Shown: one piece after another, positions 3,864 to 59,699 of the stretch
How the letters are laid out: every line of letters begins with the position of its first letter
Position numbering within the stretch: the stretch's first letter is position 1
Source of the DNA: an uncultured Hyphomicrobiales bacterium
GTDB lineage: Bacteria; Bacteroidota; Ignavibacteria; Kapaibacteriales; UBA2268
Assembly (NCBI GenBank): GCA_964462685.1
Contig: CAYWYR010000001.1
Location: 108,137-172,136, forward strand
Length of the DNA stretch: 64,000 bases
Direction of reading: 5' to 3'
Position numbers and translations under genes: made by a program
The notes under the pieces: model-generated
Database searches by the model: none
What the model was told of the DNA's origin: nothing
What the model saw: the letters and a program-made list of their open reading frames with translations, nothing else

Positions 3864-5666
3864 TTGCAGTTCGATTATTTCAATGGAAATAATATTGATC
3901 GGAGTATATTAATGCCTACTATCACTATAGATGGTAATAAGATTGAAACCAAGCCAGGTCAGACCGTCATTCAGGCGGCTTACGACAATGGCATGAAAAT
4001 ACCGCATTTCTGCTGGCACCCCGAGTTAACTGTTGCGGGGAACTGCCGGATGTGCCTTGTAGAAACTGGAACCCCAAAGCGAGACAGAGAAGGGAATGTT
4101 GAAACCGATGAGAACGGCGAGCCCGTGATATCATTTATTCCCAAACTTCAGATCGCTTGTGCTACCCAAGTCTCAGATGGAATGGTCATCAAGACCGCTT
4201 CCGACAAGGCAATTGAAGCACAGGAAGCCGTAATGGAGTTTTTGCTTATCAATCACCCACTTGATTGCCCTATATGCGATGAAGCCGGTGAGTGTAAACT
4301 CCAGGAATACGGGCTTAAGCACTCAACTGGCGAAAGCCGTTTTGATGAGCAGAAGAACCATAAACCCAAACGTCAGGTTTGGGGCCCGAACGTGGTATTT
4401 GATGCGGAAAGGTGTATATCTTGTTCCCGTTGTATCAGATATGCTGACGAGATAGCCGAGCAAAGTGTTTTGACTTTTGTTCAACGCGGTGATCACGTTA
4501 CTATAGAGCTCTTCGAAGACACTGTATTCGACAGCCCTTATTCTATGAACGTTATCGAGCTTTGCCCAGTAGGAGCTCTAACTTCTGATGACTTCAGGTT
4601 CAAGTCCAGAGTTTGGGAAATGTCCTTCAGCGAATCTATTACGAACGCTGATGCAAGCGGTGCAAATATCAGAATCGGTGTCAGGAACAATGAAGTTCTT
4701 AGAATCCAGCCGCGTACTAATATGTACGTAAACGAGTACTGGCTAAGCGATGACCAAAGACTGAATCACATAGATAAATTGAATGAAGACCGTATCACAG
4801 AGCCAATGATCAAGATCGACGGTGTGATGCGGGAAACAAGTTGGGATGAGGCTTACGCGTCAACCTATAAACTGATAAGCCAGACACAAGGCAAAATCGC
4901 AGTTATCGGTTCGGCAAAATCATCCAACGAAGATCTTTTTGCTCTCAAGCGTTTTTCCTCCGAAGTATTGAACACAGAGAACCTGGTTTATCTTAACTTC
5001 TTCGATGAATCGCAGGATGACAAATTAGTCAAAGGTGTAAAAGAAAGAAGGCCTAACGCAAAAGGTGCAAACGCGCTTGGGTATAAAGAAGGTAAAGAGG
5101 CTTTTGAAGATGCCTTGAATGGTGCTGGGCTTATCATTGTGGTGGATGAGGATTTCGCGAACCACAGAGATTTAGGATCTTATGTGACTGCATCCGGTGT
5201 ACCCATTATTGCATTCGCTCAAAACGAGGGCCCTGTAACCGCAGTATCCGAGATAGTACTTCCTTCTTCCACTTATGCCGAATCTGAAGGTACTTATACC
5301 AACTTTGAAGGAAGAGTACAGCATTTCGGCCCGGCTATGACAACTAAAGAGAATTTCAGGTTCATGGGTATGAAAATGTCCCGATGGGATAAATTCGGTG
5401 CCCCTAATGACAGATGGACTCAGCATGAGCAAAGGAACTGCCGTCAGCTTTGGAGATCATTGCAAAAGATAGCAGCACTTGCTGGCTTTGAATGGAGCTA
5501 CAAGAATTCATCTCATGTATTTGATGAGATCGCAGCTTCAAACGAAAATTTCGGTGGTATGGAGTATAAGACAATTAAGCATTACCAAGGTCTGGTTATG
5601 GGCAAGCAGTCCGAACCCGATCCAAAGGTAATGAATTATGTCAGCCACTCGATGAAACCGTACTAA
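3864..5666 (+). CDS. nuoG: NADH-quinone oxidoreductase subunit G (short form); likely true start at 3912 (MPTITIDG)
   Basis: N-terminal 2Fe-2S ferredoxin fold (CRMCLVE), HPLDCPICDEAGECKLQEY 4Fe-4S motif, and CISCSRCIRY. Confidence 0.85.
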   Translation: MQFDYFNGNNIDRSILMPTITIDGNKIETKPGQTVIQAAYDNGMKIPHFCWHPELTVAGNCRMCLVETGTPKRDREGNVETDENGEPVISFIPKLQIACATQVSDGMVIKTASDKAIEAQEAVMEFLLINHPLDCPICDEAGECKLQEYGLKHSTGESRFDEQKNHKPKRQVWGPNVVFDAERCISCSRCIRYADEIAEQSVLTFVQRGDHVTIELFEDTVFDSPYSMNVIELCPVGALTSDDFRFKSRVWEMSFSESITNADASGANIRIGVRNNEVLRIQPRTNMYVNEYWLSDDQRLNHIDKLNEDRITEPMIKIDGVMRETSWDEAYASTYKLISQTQGKIAVIGSAKSSNEDLFALKRFSSEVLNTENLVYLNFFDESQDDKLVKGVKERRPNAKGANALGYKEGKEAFEDALNGAGLIIVVDEDFANHRDLGSYVTASGVPIIAFAQNEGPVTAVSEIVLPSSTYAESEGTYTNFEGRVQHFGPAMTTKENFRFMGMKMSRWDKFGAPNDRWTQHEQRNCRQLWRSLQKIAALAGFEWSYKNSSHVFDEIAASNENFGGMEYKTIKHYQGLVMGKQSEPDPKVMNYVSHSMKPY

Positions 5667-5701
5667 ACAGATTAATTGGATAAAAAGGGACTAACCCAAA
5701 A

Positions 5702-6820
5702 ATGTCTGATCTAAATTTTCTCTTGCTTGAAACCGGTGTTAAGGCTTTTGTAGTCGTCAACATCATTCTTGCTCTCGCCTCAGGCGAGGTTTATCTAGAA
5801 AGAAAAATATCCGCTTGGATACAAAACCGTATCGGCCCCAATAGGGTAGGGCCATTAGGCTTATTACAGCCCATAGCCGATGTTGTAAAACTATTCTTCA
5901 AAGAGGATGTAGTCCCGAAGGCGGCACATCAAGGCTTTCACCTTCTGGCACCGATGCTCTCTCTTGCTGTTGCTGTAGGTGTTTACGCGGTGATCCCTTA
6001 TGGCCATTATCTGGAGTTTGAAGTAGGTGATACTATCAGGCGAGTATATATGGGTCTGGCGCCAAATATCAACGTTGGTGCTCTGTTCATCTTAGCTATG
6101 ACTTCAGTCGGTGTTTATGGGATTACGATAGCCGGGTGGGCATCCAATTCCAAATATTCACTTCTCGGTGGATTGCGTTCGGCCGCACAGATGATTTCCT
6201 ATGAACTTGCTATGGGTCTGGCGCTTGTAGCCGTTATCATTATATCAGGTTCATTAAGCATGAATCAGATCGTGATTGAGCAGTCGGCATGGGGCGGTTT
6301 CCGTTGGAATGTTATACTTCAGCCACTGGGTTTCATAATATTTCTGGTATCGGCTTTCGCTGAGACAAACCGTGCACCTTTCGATCTACCCGAGGCAGAG
6401 CCAGAGCTTGTAGGTGGATTCAATACAGAGTATTCTGGTATGAAGTTCGGTATGTTCTTCTTGGCCGAGTATGCGAACATGGCTACGGCATCTGCTTTCT
6501 TGGCGATACTATACTTTGGAGGATGGACGCTTCCATTCCACGATCTTATCCCGATAATGGATTCAGCCGGTGAGATAATCAGATACGATAACGGCGAGTG
6601 GTTCGGGATTCCAGGTAATTCTTGGATTATAGGTCTGGCACAGTTTGTATGGTTCTTCGCCAAACTAATGTTCTTCATTCTGTTCTTTATTTGGGTAAGA
6701 TGGTCTATACCTCGTTTCAGATATGATCAGCTAATGAACCTTGGTTGGAAAGTACTCCTACCGTTATCAATAGTCAATGTAATAATTACTGCTGTACTCG
6801 TCCTATTACTTGACAGTTAA
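5702..6820 (+). CDS. nuoH: NADH-quinone oxidoreductase subunit H
   Basis: GPLGLLQPIADVVKLFFKED motif, a multi-pass membrane protein of about 370 aa, lying between nuoG and nuoI. Confidence 0.9.
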   Translation: MSDLNFLLLETGVKAFVVVNIILALASGEVYLERKISAWIQNRIGPNRVGPLGLLQPIADVVKLFFKEDVVPKAAHQGFHLLAPMLSLAVAVGVYAVIPYGHYLEFEVGDTIRRVYMGLAPNINVGALFILAMTSVGVYGITIAGWASNSKYSLLGGLRSAAQMISYELAMGLALVAVIIISGSLSMNQIVIEQSAWGGFRWNVILQPLGFIIFLVSAFAETNRAPFDLPEAEPELVGGFNTEYSGMKFGMFFLAEYANMATASAFLAILYFGGWTLPFHDLIPIMDSAGEIIRYDNGEWFGIPGNSWIIGLAQFVWFFAKLMFFILFFIWVRWSIPRFRYDQLMNLGWKVLLPLSIVNVIITAVLVLLLDS

Positions 6821-6853
6821 AATCGCAAAATTTGCAGTTGAAAGGCTTATAAA

Positions 6854-7351
6854 ATGAATAATACTAAGAATACCGAAGCAGAGAGAATGTCCTTTTGGGA
6901 AAAGCTCTACATCCCCGAGATAGCAAAGGGATTGGGCATAACCCTCAAGCAGATGTTCAAGCCGAAGTTTACTAGGCAATACCCGGAGGAAAGATTTGAA
7001 CCTACGGGATCTTATCGCGGCAGGCCTGTACTGGTGGAAGAAAATGGCCAAGAACGATGCGTTGCTTGTGGGCTTTGTTCTAGGGTTTGCCCTGCACTTG
7101 CTATTGAAGTACAAGCCGATGAGACACCTCGACATAAAGAGCGCTATCCAGTCAAATTCGAAATCAATATGCTTCGCTGCATATTCTGTGCGCTTTGCGA
7201 AGAAGTATGCCCGGAGGAAGCTATTGTTATGAGTAAGGATTACGACCTCGTATTCACAAGCCAGCAAGATGCAATACTCGGCAAAGAAGAGCTTCTAGTT
7301 CCTATGGAAAGACTACAAGATAGGTTAGAGTTCCTTAGAGCTTACAAATAA
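6854..7351 (+). CDS. nuoI: NADH-quinone oxidoreductase subunit I (2x 4Fe-4S ferredoxin)
   Basis: Two CxxCxxCxxxCP motifs ([24 protein letters not shown]). Confidence 0.85.
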
Positions 7352-7380
7352 ATCCTTACTTAAATTGTCTAAAACTCAAT

Positions 7381-7411
7381 AAGCCGAACCTTTTAGGGTC
7401 GGCTTTTTTTT
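7381..7411 (+). terminator. Rho-independent terminator after nuoI
   Basis: GC hairpin agccgaacc/gggtcggct followed by a T8 run. Confidence 0.6.
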
Positions 7412-7434
7412 ATTCCCTTAAATCAAATCAAGAA

Positions 7435-9033
7435 ATGAACAATATTAAATATTTAAAAGATCTCCAGACTAAACTATCACAGCTATATATAGATATCACA
7501 AAGAATTACTATGAAGCCTCAATTTCCGGTGATGATACTCTATTTGAAGCAAGCAGTAAAGCTCAGTTTGAATATGAAAAGGTATTGGCTGATAAAGGAA
7601 CATATCAAAAATTAAAAGATTTAGCCACAACAGAAGAAACTACATCTGATATTGATAGGAGAACGGCCAAAGTCCTGCTGAATGAATCGGAAGCAAAACA
7701 GATAAATGAGCCCGATCTTAAAAAAATGATCGATCTCCAAACCGAGATTGAAAAGAAGTTCACATCATTCAGGGCGGAGATAGATGATAGAAATTATACC
7801 GACAACGAGATTGAAAATACACTATCAGACAGCAACGACAGTAAAGTAGTCGAAGCATTTTGGAAGTCATCAAAAGAAATAGGAAATCAGGTTTCAAGTG
7901 AAGTATTAGAACTGGTTCATCTCAGGAATGCAAGTGCAAAAGAGTTAGGCTATGATAATTATCACTCCATGCAATTACAGCTAAATGAGATAGACCCAAC
8001 TTGGCTAGAAAATATCTTTGATGAATTAGATGAACTCACACGCCCAGCTTTTGAAGAAATGAAAACCGAAATCGATAGTTTCATAGCAAAAAAATTCGGT
8101 GTTGAATCTAATGATCTAAAGCCTTGGCATTATGGCAATCGTTATTTTCAGGAAGCCCCAGCAATATACGATAGCGGACTTGACACAGTATATAAAGAAG
8201 CCCCTATACACGATATCACAAAAGCATTTTACGACTCTATTGGGCTAAATATAGATGAGATGTCTTCAAATTCTGATCTCTACGAGAAAGAGGGTAAGAA
8301 CCAGCACGCTTTCTGCATAGATATAGACAGGGAAATAGGAGATATCCGTATCCTGTGTAATATCGTGCCTTCACACAGGTGGATGGATACCGATCTCCAT
8401 GAATTTGGGCACGGAGTTTATGACTATTATATGAATAGGGAACTGCCATGGGCGTTGATGACACCCTCCCACATCTTCACAACTGAAGCAATAGCTATGC
8501 TTTTTGGCAGACTTGCCGGAAACGCCGAATGGATAAGGAACAATGTCCCTAATGCCGAAAAATATAACGATAACGGACATAGCCATAAAGAAGCAGCAAT
8601 GGCACAGATCGTATTCAGCCGATGGGCACAGGTGATGTACCGATTTGAAAAAGATATGTATGCCGATCCCAAGCAGGATTTACAGAAAATTTGGTGGGAT
8701 TTGGTAAGTAAATATCAAGGTATTACCATGCCCATAGGCCGAGATAGTGAGAATGACTGGGCATCGAAAATCCATATCGCTACCGTACCGTGTTATTATC
8801 ACAACTACCTATTAGGAGAGATAATGGCGAGCCAACTGCAAGCCTATATTACCAAGAACATCAGCAATGATAAGAACCCTGGAAACTGGAAAGGTGATAA
8901 AAAAGTAGGTGAGTATCTAACTGAAAAAGTATTCAAACCAGGTAAATCACTCCGTTGGGATCAGTTAGTTGAAAATGCTACTGGAGAGAACCTCACAGCC
9001 AAATACTATTCAGAACATTTCTGCGATTTTTAG
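7435..9033 (+). CDS. Zinc metallopeptidase, gluzincin of the M2 (ACE-like peptidyl-dipeptidase) type
   Basis: HEFGH zinc motif with a downstream TEAIAMLFG glutamate 24 residues later. This parallels the ACE HEMGH ... HEAIGD arrangement and LP-x-AL spacing. Confidence 0.55.
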   Translation: MNNIKYLKDLQTKLSQLYIDITKNYYEASISGDDTLFEASSKAQFEYEKVLADKGTYQKLKDLATTEETTSDIDRRTAKVLLNESEAKQINEPDLKKMIDLQTEIEKKFTSFRAEIDDRNYTDNEIENTLSDSNDSKVVEAFWKSSKEIGNQVSSEVLELVHLRNASAKELGYDNYHSMQLQLNEIDPTWLENIFDELDELTRPAFEEMKTEIDSFIAKKFGVESNDLKPWHYGNRYFQEAPAIYDSGLDTVYKEAPIHDITKAFYDSIGLNIDEMSSNSDLYEKEGKNQHAFCIDIDREIGDIRILCNIVPSHRWMDTDLHEFGHGVYDYYMNRELPWALMTPSHIFTTEAIAMLFGRLAGNAEWIRNNVPNAEKYNDNGHSHKEAAMAQIVFSRWAQVMYRFEKDMYADPKQDLQKIWWDLVSKYQGITMPIGRDSENDWASKIHIATVPCYYHNYLLGEIMASQLQAYITKNISNDKNPGNWKGDKKVGEYLTEKVFKPGKSLRWDQLVENATGENLTAKYYSEHFCDF

Positions 9034-9055
9034 ATCTCTACTATGCTTCCCTCTG

Positions 9056-9166
9056 AATGACATATACAGCTCTTCAATTCCTTCCCTTGGGGGGAAGGGT
9101 TTAGGATGGGGTGTTCTATAACAAGGGGTTGCAACCCCTGTTGCATAGTATATATGACAAGACATA
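9056..9166. repeat. Dispersed intergenic repeat, modules C+B, in reverse orientation relative to the copy at 26428..26536
   Basis: The reverse complement of 26428..26536 aligns along about 110 bp (ctctgaatgac ... ccttcc-ggggaagg-tttaggatggggtg ... aacaaggggttgcaacccctgttgcata-tatatatgaca). It contains the 24-bp palindrome aacaaggggttgcaacccctgttg. Confidence 0.75.
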
Positions 9167-9243
9167 GTAACTGTAATTTCGAATGCCGATAGGCAGAAAA
9201 ATCCTCAATATTTACCCACAATTTACATCAAGCCATATTAAGC

Positions 9244-9317: not shown

Positions 9318-9623
9318 ATGTACGCAGTAGTAGATATAGCAGGCAACCAATATCAGGTTACCAACAACCAGACTATCACAGTTGATAAGCTTAGCGCTAA
9401 ACCTGGCGAAGAAGTTACTTTCGATAATGTACTTGTAGCCAATGACGGTAGCAATACAACTATCGGCTCACCATTTACAGGTGGGGCGGTAAAAGCGAAA
9501 GTAATAGAGCACGGGCGTGCCGATAAAGTTCTTGTCTTCCACAAGAAGAGAAGAAAAGGTTACCGTAAGCTTAACGGACACCGCCAGCATTATACTACTA
9601 TCGAAATCACTTCGGTAGCTTAA
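9318..9623 (+). CDS. rplU: 50S ribosomal protein L21
   Basis: MYAVVDIAGNQYQV N-terminus; about 100 aa. Confidence 0.9.
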   Translation: MYAVVDIAGNQYQVTNNQTITVDKLSAKPGEEVTFDNVLVANDGSNTTIGSPFTGGAVKAKVIEHGRADKVLVFHKKRRKGYRKLNGHRQHYTTIEITSVA

Positions 9624-11057: not shown

Positions 11058-11141
11058 GCCCGGATGGCGGAATTGGTAGACGCTCAGGACTTAAAATCCT
11101 GTGATGGCAACATCGTGCGGGTTCGATTCCCGCTCTGGGTA
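11058..11141 (+). tRNA. tRNA-Leu (anticodon UAA)
   Basis: GCCCGGATGGCGGAATTGGTAGACGC D-arm. Anticodon stem-loop cagga-cuUAAaa-uccug. Long variable arm. T-arm gcgggTTCGAttcccgc. Confidence 0.85.
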
Positions 11142-11148
11142 CAAAAAA
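11127..11148 (+). repeat. Direct repeat, left copy: tRNA-Leu 3' end plus 3 nt (candidate attL core)
   Basis: ttcccgctctgggtacaaaaaa recurs at 14534..14555 with identical sequence. Confidence 0.7.
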
Positions 11149-11195
11149 AGGGGAAGCTTTTAAACAGAGGTTTCCCCTTTTATTTTAGGGTCTGA
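11148..11195 (+). terminator. Terminator hairpin after tRNA-Leu(UAA)
   Basis: aaaggggaa ... ttcccctttt stem followed by a T-rich tail. Confidence 0.45.
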
Positions 11196-11596
11196 TGTTT
11201 AATGTTTAACTCCCTGTTCTTTTATCGCTATTAATTGGAATTTTTATTTGTTTCGATACGTTTATATTAGTCCAAGATCAGTTTAAATTAATCATCTAAA
11301 ATGCATTCAGTGCAAATATCCCTTAGTTATTCCACAATCATTATAATTATATACTGGATAATTTATTATTAGTTATTCATACAAAAAGATGAATAACAGA
11401 TTAATGAGTACATAAATAGAATTAAAAACTCATTACCAGACTAAATAGTATAAAAGATATTTATGCATCTTCTAAAGTCTTATTTTTTTTTTATTTTATG
11501 ATTAACTAAAACAGATTATAGATATATTTATGGAAACATCAAAAGTTGATGTGTTTTTTTTTCTATTGCTTTTGCAATATAATTAGGAGGTCTCAT

Positions 11597-12301
11597 ATGA
11601 GATTAAAGTTTTTTGTATCACTTATTTTAGTAGTAGGTGTAACAACTATCTACGCACAAACACCTGCTGTGTGTATTCCTGAACCCATCACTATCGATTT
11701 GGACGATTATCCAATTCAAGCAGATGACTTTCTAATATACGGGAGTATCGATGTTGTTGGATCATTTGATGCTGAAACGTGTGTTTATAATCTAGAGCTT
11801 GATTGGCCAGGATTTAATCCGTATAGCATAAACGGTAAGCAATATTCCTTTGAAGATGTCAAGGGTCTGTTGACTTTTAAATTTCTCGAAGCATTCTATC
11901 GAGATCATATAGACAATAAAGATCCTAGTTTGACATACACAGTCAATTTTTTTGAGAAGAAGTTTTGTACCTATAATGAGGTATGTTATTTAGAATTTGA
12001 AAGAAATGCAACAACCGACTGTGTTGATCCTGGATTTGGCGATCCTCCAATTTGGATAGAGGGTAATACCAATAGAATATTATCTTTCGTGAGTGAAGGA
12101 GGAACCTGTGGATACGTGTGCTGCGTTACACCAGTAACATTTAAACCAGGGCAAGGTAGCATAATTGTTGATAATATACAAATTCTGAACTCTTATCAGT
12201 ACTCTTCATTTTGTGAGCCTCCGGCAGAAACAGATTGTCTTACTGGTGAACCTTATGAATGTGTAAGTCCTAGCTGTGATTATGTAAAAGGGGGTAGTTA
12301 A
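11597..12301 (+). CDS. Cysteine-rich secreted hypothetical protein (islet gene 1)
   Basis: An AGGAGG RBS lies 8 nt upstream of ATG 11597. Signal peptide MRLKFFVSLILVVGVTTIYAQ. Sixteen Cys in the mature part. Very AT-rich upstream region. Confidence 0.5.
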   Translation: MRLKFFVSLILVVGVTTIYAQTPAVCIPEPITIDLDDYPIQADDFLIYGSIDVVGSFDAETCVYNLELDWPGFNPYSINGKQYSFEDVKGLLTFKFLEAFYRDHIDNKDPSLTYTVNFFEKKFCTYNEVCYLEFERNATTDCVDPGFGDPPIWIEGNTNRILSFVSEGGTCGYVCCVTPVTFKPGQGSIIVDNIQILNSYQYSSFCEPPAETDCLTGEPYECVSPSCDYVKGGS

Positions 12302-13758
12302 TGAGATCATTTTCAATTATGCTGCTATTTATAGGGATGTACTATTGCAGTTTATCTTATGATACTGATGAATTTTTTGTAAAAAACAGATTAGTAGTGA
12401 ATGAGAACGGATATATTATGGTACTCGATAAGAATGACCCCACTCCTGAAAATTTCTATTTTGGTAAAGATATCGATAATCTAGTCAGTGTGGATTGTCC
12501 AATGTATTTACAAGAAACAGATGATTTCATGTTAGATTTCTCTATTTCCCCTTCAGGAGATCTATATGCTACTTTAAAAGACAGCCTATACCGCTTTGAT
12601 GATAACTCCTGGGTTAGTTATCCATTTAGATTTGACCTTCCTGCACCCTCTATCGATGTACTTGGATTTGATGATGACAATGACCCCATCCTAGAGTTAT
12701 CTGAGGCATATTTCATTAATTCCCAGGGTACTAATATCCCAATTATCGTATCTATGGAAATAGCAAGATTTAAAAACGAGGAATTGCTCTATTACCCAGA
12801 CAGCCATCTGGGTGTAGATATTAATGATGAAAATATTATAAGATTCCCAAGATTTATTGAAGGCACTAGAATCTATTATGAAGCCGTTTCTCCCGTTATG
12901 GACTCAATGGCACTCGGTACGGTCGAGAATCTGTTCGAGGATAATCTCTTTATATTAGACAGAGATGGAATCAAAGAAAGCTTTAGGACTTTAAACTTTC
13001 CTGATAGTGTACCTGTAACTGCATCTTCTATTACTAATGTAAAAAAGGCAAACAACACTCTCTATTTTAATCATAGAAAACCAGTGGTTCAGATACCTTC
13101 AGACGACAATGCTAGTTTGACCAATATCTTTCTTGACAAGATGATAACTACGTTCGATCTTGATACTTACGAACAGGATATTATTAACGACTGGTCTGCT
13201 TTGCCTTCAATATATTTAGAACCAGGGTTCTCGAATATGTACTCTGTAGATGACAAGATATACGGAATAAACTACAATACCCTGTACACGATAGTAGGCC
13301 GATCGGTTAAGAATATTCAGATCGATATCGACAAGCTTATAACGGTATATCCATTCAGAAATGAATCGGAATATACAGAAATTGATATCAGCGGGGATAT
13401 TGCCGATATATCAGTAGGCAAGATGAAGGGACTTTTCCAGATGGGCGGGATGGTTTACTTTATTGGAGATTATGCATTCTATGAGTTTGAGACCAGTGCT
13501 ATCAAACCATTAACGTCGGTTGTGTCGGAAAACTCACAGAATCGCTTGGAGGCATATTATTCTAAAGGTGTACTACACTTCAAGAAAATGATAGAAACCG
13601 AAGCCTATCTATTCGACATAAACGGTAAGCTGTTGATGGAAATACAGGCAAATACTGAATCGATAGATATGTCACCATATCCGGTCGGTACATATATCGT
13701 GATGAAGTCTTTCAATACACCTCAATTTCAATCATTCAAATTTTCAAAAAAGGACTAA
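12301..13758 (+). CDS. Secreted hypothetical protein with a T9SS-like C-terminal domain (islet gene 2)
   Basis: A TAATG stop/start overlap with the upstream gene. N-terminal signal/lipobox-like segment. C-terminal segment (YLFDINGKLLMEIQ ... GTYIVMKSF) resembles a Por CTD. Confidence 0.5.
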   Translation: MRSFSIMLLFIGMYYCSLSYDTDEFFVKNRLVVNENGYIMVLDKNDPTPENFYFGKDIDNLVSVDCPMYLQETDDFMLDFSISPSGDLYATLKDSLYRFDDNSWVSYPFRFDLPAPSIDVLGFDDDNDPILELSEAYFINSQGTNIPIIVSMEIARFKNEELLYYPDSHLGVDINDENIIRFPRFIEGTRIYYEAVSPVMDSMALGTVENLFEDNLFILDRDGIKESFRTLNFPDSVPVTASSITNVKKANNTLYFNHRKPVVQIPSDDNASLTNIFLDKMITTFDLDTYEQDIINDWSALPSIYLEPGFSNMYSVDDKIYGINYNTLYTIVGRSVKNIQIDIDKLITVYPFRNESEYTEIDISGDIADISVGKMKGLFQMGGMVYFIGDYAFYEFETSAIKPLTSVVSENSQNRLEAYYSKGVLHFKKMIETEAYLFDINGKLLMEIQANTESIDMSPYPVGTYIVMKSFNTPQFQSFKFSKKD

Positions 13759-13759
13759 A

Positions 13760-14413
13760 ATGAAAAAACTAATTTTCTTATTAATAATATCATTTAGTAT
13801 TCAAAACATAGCTTTATCGCAAGCTGAAGATTGTGTACCGGGAAATCCACAATGGACAAATGGGACAGCATCATATGATAACGATGGTTATATGACAAAC
13901 AATATCTATTCTACAGTTGATTACAAATTTTCAGGTACTAATGTTATTATTGACTGGTTTACACTAAACAATACTAGTATAGGTGGTTGGATTAGTGATC
14001 AACTTGTGAAAGATGGTCTTATTAGTAGTATTGCATATTCATTGACTTCTGGATCCGGAACTGTAAATTTCTATTTCGAAACAGTATGTCGAAAACTTGT
14101 AAGGGCATATTATACGAGAGCACAAACATAAGACGAAGAATGTTGTCCTTCTAAATCACAAGCTGAAAAAGATGCTTTATTTGAAAGAATAAGTGGAGTA
14201 GATTATAGAGTTGCTACTCGGTGGGTGGATTGTGGTGTAAAATGTTGTAGATTGGAAGTGACAATCACTTCAAGCTTTGATACCTTTAGCAGCAAATGGG
14301 TATATTCATATGCATATAATACTTATTCTGTAACTAATTGTGATCCTGGTACTGACGTGGATTGTAAAGACAGGCCTGCACCTTGTGCAGCGGATTGTCC
14401 AGAGTATCCGTAA
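13760..14413 (+). pseudogene. Cys-rich secreted protein gene interrupted by a single in-frame TAA at 14129-14131 (islet gene 3)
   Basis: ORFs 13760..14131 and 14225..14413 share one frame. The stretch between them (DEECCPSKSQAEKDALFERISGVDYRVATRWVDCGVKCC ...) is open. Signal peptide MKKLIFLLIISFSIQNIALSQA. Confidence 0.35.
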
Positions 14414-14533
14414 AATGTATGTATAAAGATTAGGAACGGGTCATAATAAATTTGTTCCTATCTTATATCTCGCACAATAACGGACATTTATATGTTGCTC
14501 AACTATTTTTAATTCACTCAACATTAATAGCGT

Positions 14534-14555
14534 TCCCGCTCTGGGTACAAAAAAG
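14534..14555 (+). repeat. Direct repeat, right copy: orphan tRNA-Leu 3' fragment (candidate attR core)
   Basis: A 22/22 identity to 11127..11148. No tRNA body lies upstream of it. Confidence 0.7.
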
Positions 14556-14586
14556 GCTTCCTTTCATCCGAAGGGAAGCCTTTTTT
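14555..14586. terminator. Strong bidirectional terminator hairpin (3' of the 14619..15956 minus-strand gene)
   Basis: A 10-bp stem ggcttccttt / aaagggaagcc with loop catccg, then T6. Confidence 0.6.
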
Positions 14587-14618
14587 GCATTTGTTTTCTA
14601 GAATACTTAATCCAAGAA

Positions 14619-18109: not shown

Positions 18110-18120
18110 CAAAGTAAAAA

Positions 18121-18155
18121 AGCAAAACCTTCATAGGTTTTGCTTTTCTTGTTTT
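18121..18155 (+). terminator. Terminator after tRNA-Leu(CAA)
   Basis: agcaaaacc ... ggttttgct stem followed by a T-rich run. Confidence 0.55.
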
Positions 18156-18207: not shown

Positions 18208-18415
18208 TCGAGTGTCATACTTGAGTGTCACACTGAGCCTGCCCGAGTGCCTGTCGAAATATAGACAAGAGCATTGCAAGATTCAATATGCTAAAGTTTC
18301 TGGATTCCTCGGCCTATCGGCACTCGGAATGACGGTTACTATGTATTGTCATACTTACTTGTCATATTGTGGCTATTGAAATATAGACAAGTACAGTGCA
18401 ACACTAAATATGCTA
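18208..18415. repeat. Two tandem copies of dispersed repeat module A (18208..18292 and 18346..18415), with a partial reverse C-like motif between them
   Basis: tgtcatacttgagtgtcacactgagcctgcccgagtgcctgtcgaaatatagacaag ... caatatgc aligns with 26346..26420 and 30197..30256. Confidence 0.7.
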
Positions 18416-26317: not shown

Positions 26318-26640
26318 CGTAATTCGGAGGGAGCGAAATACTTACTTATCATATTGAGTGTGACACTGAGCCTGCCCGAGTGCCTGTCAAAATACAGACA
26401 AGAGCGAAGAATCTCAATATACAATCTGTCATATATATTATGCAACAAGGGGTTGTAACCCCTTGTTAAAGATCACCCCATCCTAAATCCTTCCCCTCAG
26501 GTGGAAGGACTTGTTAAGCTTTTCGTCATTCAGAGAGAGCATAGCGACCGAAGAATCTCAGAAGCGACAGGCTGAATATGACATGCACTCGGGAAGATAG
26601 GGTTATAGTCTGGCTGTGCCTTCGAGGCAGGCAGTTTCGG
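26318..26640. repeat. Most complete copy of the mosaic intergenic repeat: C'(26318-26329), A(26336-26420), B(26428-26536, ending in C gtcattcagag), plus a tail
   Basis: It aligns to 18208..18292 and 30190..30256 (module A), and its reverse complement aligns to 9056..9166 (modules B+C). An 11-bp C motif lies at both ends in direct orientation. Confidence 0.75.
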
Positions 26641-28844: not shown

Positions 28845-30128
28845 ATGGCAAAAAGAAACACTACAAACGAACTGCACTGCTCTTTTTGCAGTAGATCCAA
28901 CTCCGAAGTCAATAGCTTGATCGAGGGGCCAAACGGGGTTTTTATCTGCGATCGTTGCGTATCAAATGCTAACGATATCATAAAAAAAAGCAAGCCTTCG
29001 GAAAAGCTAGGAGATTTTACTTTATATAAGCCATCGGAACTGAAAAAGCGACTTGATGAGTATGTTATCGGACAGGATGACCCAAAAAGAATTCTTTCTG
29101 TCGCTGTATATAATCATTATAAAAGAATACAGTCCGATAACCTTTCAAGTAAGTTTGATGATATTAAGGATGTGGAGCTTGAAAAAAGTAATATCCTTAT
29201 GCTTGGGCCAACAGGTACTGGTAAGACTTTACTTGCAAGGACTCTCGCCCGTATCCTAAACGTACCTTTTGCAATAGCGGACGCCACCACGATTACAGAA
29301 TCAGGATATGTGGGAGATGATGTGGAGACGGTACTGCTTGGTCTTCTTCAGGCTACCGACTATGATACAGACCTTGTAGAACGCGGTATTATATATATAG
29401 ATGAGATCGATAAAATCGGTCGTAAATCCGATAGTCAGTCTATAACTCGCGATGTATCTGGTGAGGGCGTTCAGCAGGCTTTACTTAAAATGCTAGAGGG
29501 CTCCAAAATGGGCGTTCCGCCCAAAGGTGGCCGAAAGCACCCAGAGCAAAATCTGATATATGTAGATACTACCAATATTCTCTTTATATGTGGCGGTGCA
29601 TTTGAGGGATTAGAGAAAATTATCGATGCCCGTATGCAGAAAGCAAGTATTGGTTTTATGGCTGATGGTAAAAAGTCTGAAGAAGAACTTGAAGAGCTCC
29701 TTACGTTCGTAGAGCCAGATGATCTTGTCAAATTCGGATTCATACCTGAAATGATAGGCAGGTTGCCAGTTGTTACTTCTCTTCAGTCCTTATCCGAAGA
29801 TGCGATGCTACGCATCCTTACAGAGCCGAAAAACGCTATCACCAAACAGTACCAAAAGCTTTTTGCTTTGGATGGTGTTGAATTAGAGTTTGATCAAGGC
29901 GCCTTAAAGGCCATTGTCGAGAAAGCTTTCGCTAGAAAAACCGGCGCTCGTGGGCTACGCTCTATAGTTGAAGATACAATGCTATCAATAATGTACGATG
30001 TACCAGACAAAACTAATCTAGGTAAGGTTGTGATAACCGAAGATACTGTTAAGGCTAAAGCTACTCCCGTTATGCTTCCTAAAGGCGAAACATCTGAGCC
30101 CAAATCTAATGCTAAAAAAGCAAGCTGA
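28845..30128 (+). CDS. clpX: ATP-dependent Clp protease ATP-binding subunit ClpX
   Basis: N-terminal C4 zinc finger (CSFCSRS ... CDRC), Walker [12 protein letters not shown] and Walker [11 protein letters not shown]. Confidence 0.9.
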
Positions 30129-30174
30129 TCTTATATAGTAGTGAGTTATAGATTATCTATATCTATCTATTCCC

Positions 30175-30256
30175 GTCATTCAGAGGGGGCAGAATACTTG
30201 CTTGTCATATTGAGCCTGTCGAAATATGGACAAGTACATTCCAAGACTCAATATAA
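30175..30256. repeat. Dispersed repeat copy: module C (gtcattcagag) then module A with an internal 28-bp deletion
   Basis: cccgtcattcagagggggcagaatacttgcttgtcatattgag ... cctgtcgaaatatggacaagtacattccaagactcaatata aligns with 26318..26420. Confidence 0.7.
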
Positions 30257-30294
30257 CATGCGCTTGATATGACGTGGTAGTTTTCTAAAGTATT

Positions 30295-41865: not shown

Positions 41866-43227
41866 ATGTTTATCAAACAGATTCTTATCGGATTAATATT
41901 TTTATCGGCATTTATAGCAGCTGATTCGCAGGATAGAAGCCAGTATTTTACTTTTGGCGAGCCTTACAAAGCATCCGTAGTAGTATTGCCACACAGCAGC
42001 AATGATTCCCTTCATGCTATCGTGATGCACAGAATAAGTTATGAAACTCTACAGTTTACCAGAACCCGAAAAGGTGGACTTACTACTTATGCCGCGGAAA
42101 CAGAGGTCAATATCACCTTTAGGAATTCCGAGGGTATCGTAAAAAACAGAACGTTCTGGCGTGATACTGTAATTACTACTGACTTTAGTGAAACCAGTAT
42201 GAAAAATAAATGGGTAGAGGGTGCTATCCAGACAGACCTACCACTGGGGGAATATTCGGTGGAGATTGAATTTGATACTAAGTCAAGATATAGGAAAAAT
42301 AAAATTGAATTAGCAATAGATTTCCCTGAAGGCTTTTACAAGTCCAATGATGATGCGACATTTGTATTCGCTGAAAAAAATGAAGAAGCCGGTATAACAA
42401 CTCCTTTTATCGATGGGGATAAGATATTGTTCAACCCTCAAGGGGCAAGTATCAAAATCTTCACTGAAGTGAGCGATATCGCTGGGCAGTATATCTTCCA
42501 GTTCGAGAAACTGACACTCTCGGAGTACCAACCTGAAGATCCAGAAACGGGCGATGAGCCACTTATGGATAGTGAGCTTGTTTATTCTGGTTCAGTAGAA
42601 CCGAAAATTGATACTCGTATTGAACTCATTACAGACCGCCGAGAAGTTTATCTGATAGACAAGCCTTTTAAAAATGACTCACTTAATACCTTATATTTTG
42701 ATATCGAATTCCCTTCAGATAAATTACAGCCAGGTAGTTACAGGCTAAAACTTTACGATGATCAGGGGGATGACACTCTACAGAAAAGATTTGTGGTTAA
42801 CTGGGAAAACAGACCGCAGTCGCTTCAGGATATCGAAGGGGCAGTTGAGTATATGTATTATATTCTGGATGATGAAAAATTCGAATCAATGAAATCTCTG
42901 AATGATGACAAGCAGGAAAAGGCTTTCAATCAGTATTGGGAAAATATTGACCCAACCCCCCAGACTCCATTTAACGAAGCACTTTACCAGTATTATAGCC
43001 GTGTGGACTATGCCTTTTTCAACTACCGGACTCTTGTAGAGAAAGACGGTGCAAAAACTGACCGTGGTAAGATTTACATCCTATATGGCACTCCCGATCA
43101 AAGAGATGAGGGCTTTGAGGGTGATGAATCGGTTATCAGATGGAAGTATGAAAAGCTTAGAAAAGAGTTTTTATTTACAGCCATAAGTACTGGGGTATAT
43201 AGGTTAACAGCGATAAATGAAATATAA
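41866..43227 (+). CDS. Secreted hypothetical protein with a GWxTD-like C-terminal region
   Basis: Signal peptide. C-terminal DGAKTDRGKIYILYGTPDQRDE and WENIDPTPQTPFNEALYQYYSRVDYA resemble GWxTD-domain proteins. Assigned from memory of the family. Confidence 0.4.
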   Translation: MFIKQILIGLIFLSAFIAADSQDRSQYFTFGEPYKASVVVLPHSSNDSLHAIVMHRISYETLQFTRTRKGGLTTYAAETEVNITFRNSEGIVKNRTFWRDTVITTDFSETSMKNKWVEGAIQTDLPLGEYSVEIEFDTKSRYRKNKIELAIDFPEGFYKSNDDATFVFAEKNEEAGITTPFIDGDKILFNPQGASIKIFTEVSDIAGQYIFQFEKLTLSEYQPEDPETGDEPLMDSELVYSGSVEPKIDTRIELITDRREVYLIDKPFKNDSLNTLYFDIEFPSDKLQPGSYRLKLYDDQGDDTLQKRFVVNWENRPQSLQDIEGAVEYMYYILDDEKFESMKSLNDDKQEKAFNQYWENIDPTPQTPFNEALYQYYSRVDYAFFNYRTLVEKDGAKTDRGKIYILYGTPDQRDEGFEGDESVIRWKYEKLRKEFLFTAISTGVYRLTAINEI

Positions 43228-58995: not shown

Positions 58996-59029
58996 AACCC
59001 TGTACTTAATCATAGTACGGGGTTTTTAT
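58996..59029. terminator. Bidirectional terminator between the acyl-CoA dehydrogenase gene (+) and higA (-)
   Basis: 11-bp stem aaccctgtact / agtacggggtt followed by a T-rich run. Confidence 0.6.
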
Positions 59030-59397
59030 TTATAATCAGCGACTAAAACTGATGCTGATAGATTAAGCTTGCTTTCTAAGTTTCTTATCATTTGTACTGT
59101 AAGTTTTTTCTTCCTATTGAGAATTTCTGAAACACTACTTTTACCGCCGATAATTCCGACTAGGTCTTTTTGTTTCAAGCTTAATTCCTCCATTCTTATC
59201 TTTATCGCTTCTATAGGATCAGGAGCATCTATGGGGAAGTGAGTTTGTTCATAATTATCTATTAAAAGAATCAATACTTCGGCTTCATCTCCTTCCGGTG
59301 AATTTGAAGGAGCATTGAAAATTTCGTTTAGCCGTTCGAGAGCTAAATAATAATCATTTTCATTTTTTATAGGTTTGATATTCATATTATGATCCAT
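59026..59397 (-). CDS. higA: HigA-like antitoxin (HTH, XRE family)
   Basis: Lies 5 nt downstream of the higB-like gene. C-terminal HTH-like segment LKQKDLVGIIGGKSSVSEILNRKKKLTVQMIRNL. Confidence 0.6.
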   Translation of the reverse strand: MDHNMNIKPIKNENDYYLALERLNEIFNAPSNSPEGDEAEVLILLIDNYEQTHFPIDAPDPIEAIKIRMEELSLKQKDLVGIIGGKSSVSEILNRKKKLTVQMIRNLESKLNLSASVLVADYK

Positions 59398-59402
59398 TGA
59401 AG

Positions 59403-59699
59403 TTATATATTATTCGCATCGATTTTATCATAGTGCGAGTGTGTTCCTATAAATCGAATAAAAGCCCATTGCTTTTCATAATTAAACTTAACTACCAGCC
59501 GGAACGAATTACCTTTTATATTAAAAACAGCTCTTCCGTTTTTTAGAATACTCGCGTTCGCATATACTCTTTTGATATCAGAAGGAGATTTCCAATCGGC
59601 CTTCTTCGCAGTATCATACCATGTTTTAAGGTATTGCTCAGAATCATTATAGATATTCCAAAAATCTATAAGGGCTTTTTTAGATACTATTCGTTTCAT
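59403..59699 (-). CDS. higB: HigB-like toxin (RelE/ParE superfamily mRNA interferase)
   Basis: 98 aa. VFNIKGNSFRLVVKFNYEKQWAFIRFIGTHSHYDKI matches the conserved HigB core. The toxin gene precedes the antitoxin. Confidence 0.65.
   Translation of the reverse strand: MKRIVSKKALIDFWNIYNDSEQYLKTWYDTAKKADWKSPSDIKRVYANASILKNGRAVFNIKGNSFRLVVKFNYEKQWAFIRFIGTHSHYDKIDANNI

Follow-up and report, generated by a model that had tools for sequence, protein, structure and literature searches.

Clusters of probable CGTC-type hairpin repeats in small mosaic arrays at the edges of conserved gene blocks in a relative of Candidatus Kapaibacteriales

Four patches in the spacers of a 64,000-nt stretch of bacterial DNA, referred to throughout as the window, are probably clusters of non-coding REP-type hairpin repeats of the CGTC superfamily, arranged in small mosaic arrays that resemble enterobacterial BIMEs and the NIMEs of Neisseria. 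The patches are found at approximately 9.02-9.21 kb (R9k), 18.21-18.42 kb (R18k), 26.32-26.64 kb (R26k) and 30.17-30.27 kb (R30k), and they have modules in common, in both orientations. The mosaic is one of CGTC-type hairpin repeats (module C) mixed with two lineage-specific modules, A and B (Table 1). The nearest named relatives of the source organism are 'Candidatus Kapaibacteriales' MAGs.

Four patches with shared modules

An initial annotation, made from the letters of the window, had claimed that the four loci share modules in both orientations, and self-BLAST and motif counts bear this out. In a BLAST comparison of the four spacers with the window, 9041-9159 matches the reverse complement of 26427-26544 (83% identity over 121 nt, E 1e-25), and a second alignment lengthens this match between R9k and R26k to 9019-9159 and 26427-26563. 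Similarly, 18187-18290 matches 26320-26428 (76%, 110 nt, E 1e-16), and 18351-18429 matches 30194-30272 (77%, 79 nt, E 1e-12). One more match, between 9147-9214 and the reverse complement of 18292-18359 (79%, 68 nt, E 2e-11), had been missing from the initial list. The motif GTCATTCMGAG occurs exactly four times in the window, every time in one of these spacers. The more degenerate GTMATWYNGAG occurs 8 times where 1.2 are expected, a count reached in none of 100 shuffles, and the patches, which make up about 2% of the window, hold 12 of its 70 YGTCAT sites. The sharing of modules among the four patches is far beyond chance, and the repeats are real and non-random. The six-frame translation of the four patches has no match in the protein database at E <= 10.

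No additional copies turn up in the remainder of the window or in the 12.5 kb of sequence that flank it (7.5 kb on the left, 5 kb on the right). In total we read about 76 kb of source-genome DNA (window plus flanks); all four patches lie inside 21 kb of it (9 to 30.3 kb), and there are no others in the remaining 55 kb or so. A BLAST match at 42895-42927 falls within an ORF with an E-value of 0.25, that is, at chance level, and was rejected as a fifth copy. At 99.97% identity, the window is nearly the same as the JGI metagenome contig Ga0450804_3994347 (3300040801), from which it differs at only four positions over 13.3 kb (26344, 30306, 30318 and 31568). The A/G difference at 26344 falls within a repeat, and two of the other three are at or near a T-run just past R30k.

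Table 1. Repeat modules and hairpin units in the four patches, in window coordinates.
Feature	Coordinates	Strand	Description
C unit c3	9019..9062	-	TGTC head; GTCATTCAGAG at 9051-9061; 3' half degenerate
Module B, reverse copy	9063..9159	-	Head TGTCAT at 9154-9159; near-perfect 24-bp palindrome at 9120-9143; second hairpin CCTTCCC...GGGAAGG
C unit c6, degenerate	9172..9213	+	TGTAATTTCGAA-TGCCGATAGGC-AGAAAAATCC; aligned to c2; head-to-head with the B head, 12-nt spacer
Module A, long form, 5' frame truncated	18213..18290	+	From self-comparison and alignment
C unit c2	18299..18337	-	CGTCATTCCGAG-TGCCGATAGGC-CGAGGAATCCAG; head-to-head with the next A copy; model R1 36.8 bits, E 1.2e-8
Module A, short form	18347..18415	+	Apex TGTCAT-ATTGTG-GCTAT-TGAAATAT in a hairpin of ~16 bp; fold z = -2.1
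Composite	26318..26424	+	5' C-like frame half (CGTAATTCGGAGGGAGC), A long form, 3' frame half (CGAAGAATCTCAATAT)
Module B	26427..26523	+	TGTCAT head; 10-bp perfect hairpin; CACCCCATCCTAAA; second hairpin
C unit c1	26524..26563	+	CGTCATTCAGAG-AGAGCATAGCGAC-CGAAGAATCTCAG; model R1 35.2 bits, E 3.6e-8
A-like, truncated and degenerate	26565..26640	-	Best-matching part 26565-26587
Composite	30174..30274	+	5' C frame half (CGTCATTCAGAG), A short form, degenerate 3' frame

Module C as a hairpin unit

What had been described as an 11-bp motif is, in the intact copies of module C, a whole hairpin unit with a head, a stem, a centre, a C and a tail. The head is CGTCAT, the stem is ATTC(C/A)GAG / CGA(G/A)GAAT, the centre is variable, and the C right after the stem is followed by a short tail (CCA or CTC). 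The stem has 8 positions, of which 1-4 or 1-5 and 8 can pair, and positions 6-7 are always a G.A/A.G tandem mismatch. The two stem halves are ATTCCGAG/CGAGGAAT in c2, and ATTCAGAG/CGAAGAAT in c1 and in the L024 unit found in a relative (see below). The intact c2 reads CGTCAT-TCCGAG-TGCCGATAGGC-CGAGGAAT-CCAG, and the intact c1 reads CGTCAT-TCAGAG-AGAGCATAGCGAC-CGAAGAAT-CTCAG. The centres, 11-13 nt long in c1, c2 and c6, often form a mini-hairpin of their own. The head tag is CGTC in c1, c2, c4 and the L024 unit, and TGTC in c3, in the apices of module A and in module B; degenerate tags are found in c5 (CGTA) and c6 (TGTA). Two head-to-head pairs, at 9159/9172 and 18334/18347, have an identical 12-nt spacer.

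By nearest-neighbour DNA folding, the C units do no better than shuffled sequence; in our view, this energy model may give tandem G.A pairs too little credit. Between the C class and the class of A apices three stem positions are altered on both sides with pairing kept (ATTCC/GGAAT versus ATATT/AATAT), and both these stems and the ACTC/GAGT stem of a unit in the relative L032 are compensated, which argues for pairing of the stem.

The copies had also been described as strictly intergenic, and c3 departs from this description. It overlaps the last codons and the stop (9031-9033) of an M2/M3 peptidase gene, the product of which ends in ...HFCDF* in the window versus ...EFC* in a relative.

Modules A and B, and the composites

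The apex of module A has the C design with a different, compensated stem (ATATTGAG / CGAAATAT), as in the copy within 30174..30274, where it reads TGTCAT-ATTGAG-CCTGT-CGAAATAT. In module A the head pairs too, which results in a hairpin of about 16 bp. There is a long and a short form of A, and the extra 24 nt of the long form are in its apex loop. Of the A copies initially proposed, the one at 18346 is indeed present, but it is a short form like the one at 30190, which had been singled out as carrying an internal deletion, and the size difference is 24 nt, not 28.

The initial annotation had C flanking A. For R26k and R30k this can be made more precise, in that A lies between matches to the 5' and the 3' halves of an intact C unit. 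Since the flanking sequences align with the two halves of c1, we describe A as nested in a C-like frame in these two composites. An alternative reading is that of a compact degenerate C followed by A. A reverse CGTCAT head (30269-30274) comes after the R30k composite. R26k holds, in addition to the content first reported for it, a truncated and reversed piece of A at 26565-26587, in a degenerate stretch that reaches to about 26640. Instead of the canonical C-A-B-C unit that had been proposed, a better description is one of hairpin units that are nested or adjoin each other, accompanied by a spacer module. This spacer-type module is B, of about 96 nt, with a TGTCAT head and two good hairpins.

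Module B is the only one that clearly folds better than shuffled sequence (z = -4.4 for 26427..26523 and z = -2.7 for 9063..9159), and all three copies of B, including a half copy (B2) in a relative, are oriented alike relative to the upstream gene. In one of the B copies, a single nucleotide is deleted from an arm of the palindrome. The alignment of the four A copies includes no compensatory changes and several broken pairs. The folding of B and its constant orientation would suit a family of structured small RNAs or cis-regulatory RNAs, one of the interpretations initially suggested, as would a C unit that is kept at a matching site in L032. The remaining evidence speaks against such a family, and we consider it very unlikely. 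In Rfam searches only tRNAs reach the gathering score in the window; permissive searches of the four loci return weak matches at chance level, and no module has an actual match at any threshold. The A copies lack covariation, B has the arm deletion, several copies are truncated or reversed, and the patches are missing from the ClpX-L21 spacer of three relatives.

A second possibility is that the modules are intrinsic terminators that came to look alike through convergence. They are downstream of genes and include G+C-rich hairpins, and, when the sense strand of the upstream gene is read, TTTAGGA comes after the second hairpin of B. A scan with a terminator consensus, on the other hand, flags no module, and a canonical terminator (18118-18147) is already present between tRNA-Leu and the R18k repeats. 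As the identity extends over 70-140 nt, it indicates common descent and not convergence, and we give terminators scarcely any credence. Altogether, with no Rfam match, broken pairs in A, a deletion in a B arm and no canonical terminators, most copies look like decaying repeats.

Genomic setting and gene order

The patches are flanked by housekeeping genes, in spacers between unidirectional or convergent genes, and downstream of genes. R9k is between the M2/M3 peptidase gene and rplU, R18k between tRNA-Leu(caa), which has its own terminator, and der, R26k between the gene of a 97-aa membrane-protein-like product (without a Pfam match) and umuD, and R30k is after clpX. Motif scans of the window and Pfam scans of about 29 ORFs reveal no transposase, integrase, RAYT-like or GIY-YIG ORF. 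JGI gene tables list no transposase, integrase or RAYT-like gene in the flanks, and no GIY-YIG domain in the flanks or the relatives, which for the source genome amounts to about 76 kb.

These observations bear on the suggestion that the elements are MITEs, that is, deletion derivatives of insertion sequences moved by a DDE transposase. Like MITEs, the elements are small (80-110 nt), structured, intergenic, present in both orientations and sometimes nested. However, their ends are not inverted repeats of each other beyond the 4 nt ATTC/GAAT, a check for target-site duplications finds none that is consistent, and no transposase gene is seen in the 76 kb. The sequence AGCGAA is present on either side of A in the R26k copy only, where it could be a target duplication or chance. 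MITEs are therefore a most improbable explanation.

Several gene blocks of the window are conserved in relatives. These include L21-L27-TonB, PdxJ-283aa-tRNA, 97aa-OmpA-ClpP-ClpX, Obg...polyprenyl synthase-tRNA-Ser, and RuvA...NADH dehydrogenase-peptidase. Compared with the relatives L028, L029 and L032, at least four conserved blocks are reshuffled in the window, and R9k, R18k, R26k and R30k are each at the edge of a conserved block, none of the four being inside one. In these three relatives clpX is directly followed by rplU-rpmA, genes that are 20 kb apart in the window (9318; 28845-30128), and their ClpX-L21 spacer includes no such repeats.

With two adjacent blocks inverted, the order of the relatives yields that of the window, a derivation made post hoc. 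The block between L21 and umuD is bracketed by inverted copies of B-C (9041-9159 versus 26427-26563), and the one that runs from the 97-aa gene to ClpX has inverted pieces of A on its two sides (26565-26587 versus 30199-30221). Identity between the inverted arms is now no more than about 80-90%, so if these inversions took place, they are old. Alternatively, the edge position could result from repeats accumulating where breaks are tolerated.

Some other features of the window and of one relative are reported here as observations in their own right. An exact copy of the final 22 nt of tRNA-Leu(taa) (11127-11148) is present at 14533-14554, with a strong terminator after it (14548-14587). In the intervening 3.4 kb there are three ORFs, with no Pfam match and no counterpart in the relatives. 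The region 11058-14587 looks like an element integrated at the 3' end of a tRNA, and no integrase is seen there. At 59026-59699, a HigB-toxin-like gene (98 aa, from the JGI Pfam table) is beside a 123-aa gene, and the two are probably a toxin-antitoxin pair. L028, a 3-Mb relative (JGI12316J15310_10000031), has an array of 4-5 paralogous genes upstream of its 97-aa gene (5534-8870); each encodes about 209 aa, and they repeat in tandem every 861 nt or so.

Copies in relatives and in unrelated contigs

The module C family occurs in unrelated genomes and at other sites in relatives. The pattern CGTCATTCMGAG-N3-20-CGARGAATC identifies 62 units in 41 IMG/VR loci, with up to 6 units per 12 kb and only one strand represented within any contig. 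In one IMG/VR contig (L045, 5774-11869), 6 kb of sequence contains six CGTCATTCCGAG...CGAGGAATC units on a single strand, which occupy one spacer after another in a run of co-directional genes. The centres of the IMG/VR units range from 5 to 19 nt, and include CCTGT, which is the loop of the A apex, and GGAGAGTAGCGAC, which is near that of c1. Units with an ATATT stem and CGTC or TGTC heads are present in other low-G+C contigs. A search of the plasmid collection with the canonical unit returned nothing relevant. A GIY-YIG motif scan of the unit-bearing IMG/VR loci finds no such gene near the units. A search of IMG/VR with an approximate Ssn-like protein sequence gave no match, a result uninformative either way.

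We built a covariance model (R1) solely from 31 IMG/VR units unrelated to the window. In the window, its only significant matches are c2 and c1 (Table 1). In the relatives, it identifies the L024 unit (36.6 bits) and, more weakly, the L032 unit (16.7 bits, E 0.02).

The L024 unit comes from a Logan relative that is 77% identical to the window in a neighbouring OmpA-like protein. In this relative, the ClpP-ClpX spacer contains half of B (B2) and a compact C unit, CGTCATTCAGAGCGAAGCGAAGAATCCAG, with a 5-nt loop (CGAAG) and a CCA tail. The same spacer in the window is repeat-free and has a terminator-like hairpin only. Three independent Logan assemblies (L024, L026, L027) end at the same base within the C unit, and three more contigs (L082-L084) end about 90 nt past the peptidase gene, which makes six contig ends at two sites in four sequencing runs (SRR24804885/6/7 and SRR27540967). 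Coinciding ends are what is expected of a multi-copy repeat in short-read assembly, and suggest repeat-induced assembly breaks.

The L032 unit (9458-9497), in a Kapaibacteriales MAG, matches c1 in place and orientation, lying 3' of the 97/104-aa gene. The two are identical at 28 of 33 positions, and the stem of the L032 unit is compensated (ACTC/GAGT versus ATTC/GAAT in the window). The remainder of the two spacers around this unit does not align.

Module A gives a different result. Its 3'-arm pattern has only chance matches, in coding DNA, among 185,579 species genomes. The same is true of the metagenome collection, a weak negative in that the window's own source contig was not returned either. 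The other patterns for A and B find nothing or chance matches in IMG/VR, and neither A nor B as a whole has a copy outside the window in the genome, metagenome and IMG/VR scans or in the relatives. In terms of conservation in relatives, then, C and part of B recur, and A was not found.

With these results we can assess the possibility that the shared modules, especially A and B, are scars of duplications and inversions confined to the 21-kb region. It would account for the restriction of all four loci to 9-30.3 kb, for an A module found nowhere else, and for loci that are without exception synteny edges, with inverted B-C and A pieces around two blocks. Against it, C and half of B are found at a different locus in a related species whose assemblies break there, and the C family is found in many unrelated contigs. 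Moreover, copies that are 76-83% identical and mosaic are not recent duplicates. Local scars are in our assessment unlikely. The initial description of the loci as REP-like and recombinogenic holds up well: these are short imperfect palindromes in both orientations, located between genes, which recur elsewhere in related genomes and lie where conserved blocks end.

Comparison with known repeat systems

The loci had initially not been assigned to a described class of repeats. In its architecture, module C corresponds to the CGTC-tagged REPs (Di Nocera, De Gregorio & Rocco 2013, PMC3733652), and the layout of the patches parallels that of NIMEs (PMC1797815). A CGTC-tagged REP consists of an unpaired terminal tag (CGTC, TGTC or CCTC), a stem of 8-9 bp whose first two positions are A-T pairs, a loop of 4-5 nt and a tail of 3 nt. 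Head-to-head dimers predominate, most copies are downstream of genes, between unidirectional or convergent ones, there is no dedicated transposase, and a genome has tens to thousands of dispersed copies. Four families (CGTC-1 to CGTC-4) are distinguished, some families have other loop lengths, and the elements are reported in Chlorobi, Bacteroidetes and other phyla, with the Neisseria dRS3 among them (PMC3733652).

Compared with these, the window units are alike in their terminal CGTC/TGTC tag, in a probable stem of about 8 positions that starts A-T, A-T, and in the short tail (CCA in c2 and L024). They are also alike in their head-to-head dimers, downstream location, occasional overlap with a gene end and lack of an adjacent transposase. 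The loop of 4-5 nt fits the L024 unit (CGAAG) and the short A apices (CCTGT, GCTAT); the centres of c1, c2 and c6, in contrast, have 11-13 nt, and the frames enclosing A hold a whole nested hairpin. Also unlike the CGTC REPs as described there, the window stem has a conserved tandem G.A mismatch (GAG...CGA), and the tail is often CTC. Based on the published architecture, module C can be filed under the CGTC REP superfamily with fair confidence.

NTS, CGTCATTCCCGCGMAVGCGGGAATCYRG, is an oriented 28-nt extension of dRS3 (Chenal et al. 2025, PMC11893778). SsnA, a 94-aa GIY-YIG nuclease, binds NTS only as single-stranded DNA, on one of the two strands, and cuts a few bases upstream, and ssn genes are usually flanked by NTS-type motifs. 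Reported as most important in NTS are the three bases that precede the palindrome and the C that follows it (PMC11893778), and these are the conserved positions of the window units. The unit c2 has CGTCATTCC...GGAATCCAG in common with NTS, and thus the same head, outer stem, C after the stem and tail. The variant NTSvar (CGTCATACTCGGG...) resembles the head TGTCATACTTGAG at 18213. The inner stem is different, GAG/CGA with G.A pairs in the window units versus CCGCG/CGCGG in NTS. The dRS3 consensus ATTCCCN8GGGAAT is absent, the window units reading ATTCCGAG...CGAGGAAT instead. The published Ssn-related motif, HGTCWYN(0-2)YYVSBRHN(0-5)WNVSBRGN(0-2)RNCYNB, has no match in the window (0.14 are expected in shuffles) and matches none of the 62 IMG/VR units, while the canonical NTS, used as a control, does match. 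A GIY-YIG motif scan finds no single-domain (cd10448) Ssn ORF in the window. For the window units, we treat the Ssn link as a working analogy, not as membership.

NIMEs (neisserial intergenic mosaic elements) are mosaic arrays in which dRS3 units flank RS modules of 50-150 bp that belong to more than 100 families; as of 2007, such arrays were stated to be unseen outside Neisseria (Bentley et al. 2007, PMC1797815). NIMEs are the elements most common at the borders of rearrangements in Neisseria (PMC9778887). The window is similar in that modules A (about 60-85 nt) and B (about 96 nt) are set between hairpin units in intergenic arrays, with B comparable to the RS spacers, in the varying composition of the arrays, and in the association with recombination and with borders of rearranged blocks. 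It differs in that the arrays are small (2-4 units), the units are partly nested, and the host belongs to a different phylum. With GTAG REPs, REPINs and BIMEs, which are associated with RAYT, the window repeats have in common that they are short, palindromic and extragenic, and form dimers and clustered mosaics. Unlike those, they have CGTC or TGTC heads and no GTAG tag, and no window ORF has the HUH and Y motifs of a RAYT.

Possible mechanism and significance

In the mechanism that we propose, the hairpin units would be recognised as single-stranded DNA by an enzyme encoded elsewhere in the genome. For what may be a sister motif, SsnA is the only partner demonstrated by experiment. The interaction with such an enzyme, together with homologous recombination between dispersed copies, could explain the spread of the units, their nesting and their link with rearrangements. 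Most window copies would be decaying and without individual function. The head, the G.A core and the C that follows the stem are conserved across phyla, and a unit is retained in L032. Both facts suggest a conserved protein partner, and they point to something other than pure neutrality.

A more specific reading, which we put forward tentatively and consider rather improbable, is that the window represents an unrecognised branch of Ssn-related hairpins, with a CGTCAT hairpin and a tandem G.A core (GAG...CGA) that escapes the published motif. Units with the G.A core span from a low-G+C Kapaibacteria-like genome to high-G+C environmental contigs, and a unit is kept at the same site, with its stem compensated, in two relatives whose versions of a neighbouring protein share only about 67% identity. 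On this reading, the hairpin can also be nested in another of its kind, and it marks all the edges of the rearranged blocks in the region. If this reading were true, a conserved single-stranded-DNA enzyme, an Ssn-type GIY-YIG nuclease or another, would shape gene order outside Neisseria.

For annotation, the four patches are to be treated as repeats, neither genes nor known RNAs. As probable CGTC-type repeats, they would extend a described class, the CGTC REPs, kin of NTS and dRS3, to an uncultured lineage of Bacteroidota, and would provide a NIME-like mosaic outside Neisseria. They would also bring to light a subfamily with tandem G.A stems that is common in environmental contigs and is missed by the motif used for the partners of Ssn nucleases. 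If a cognate protein exists, the units would be candidates for new specificities in the site-specific cutting of single-stranded DNA. Finally, the position of the patches at block edges would make repeat-linked rearrangement testable in another phylum.
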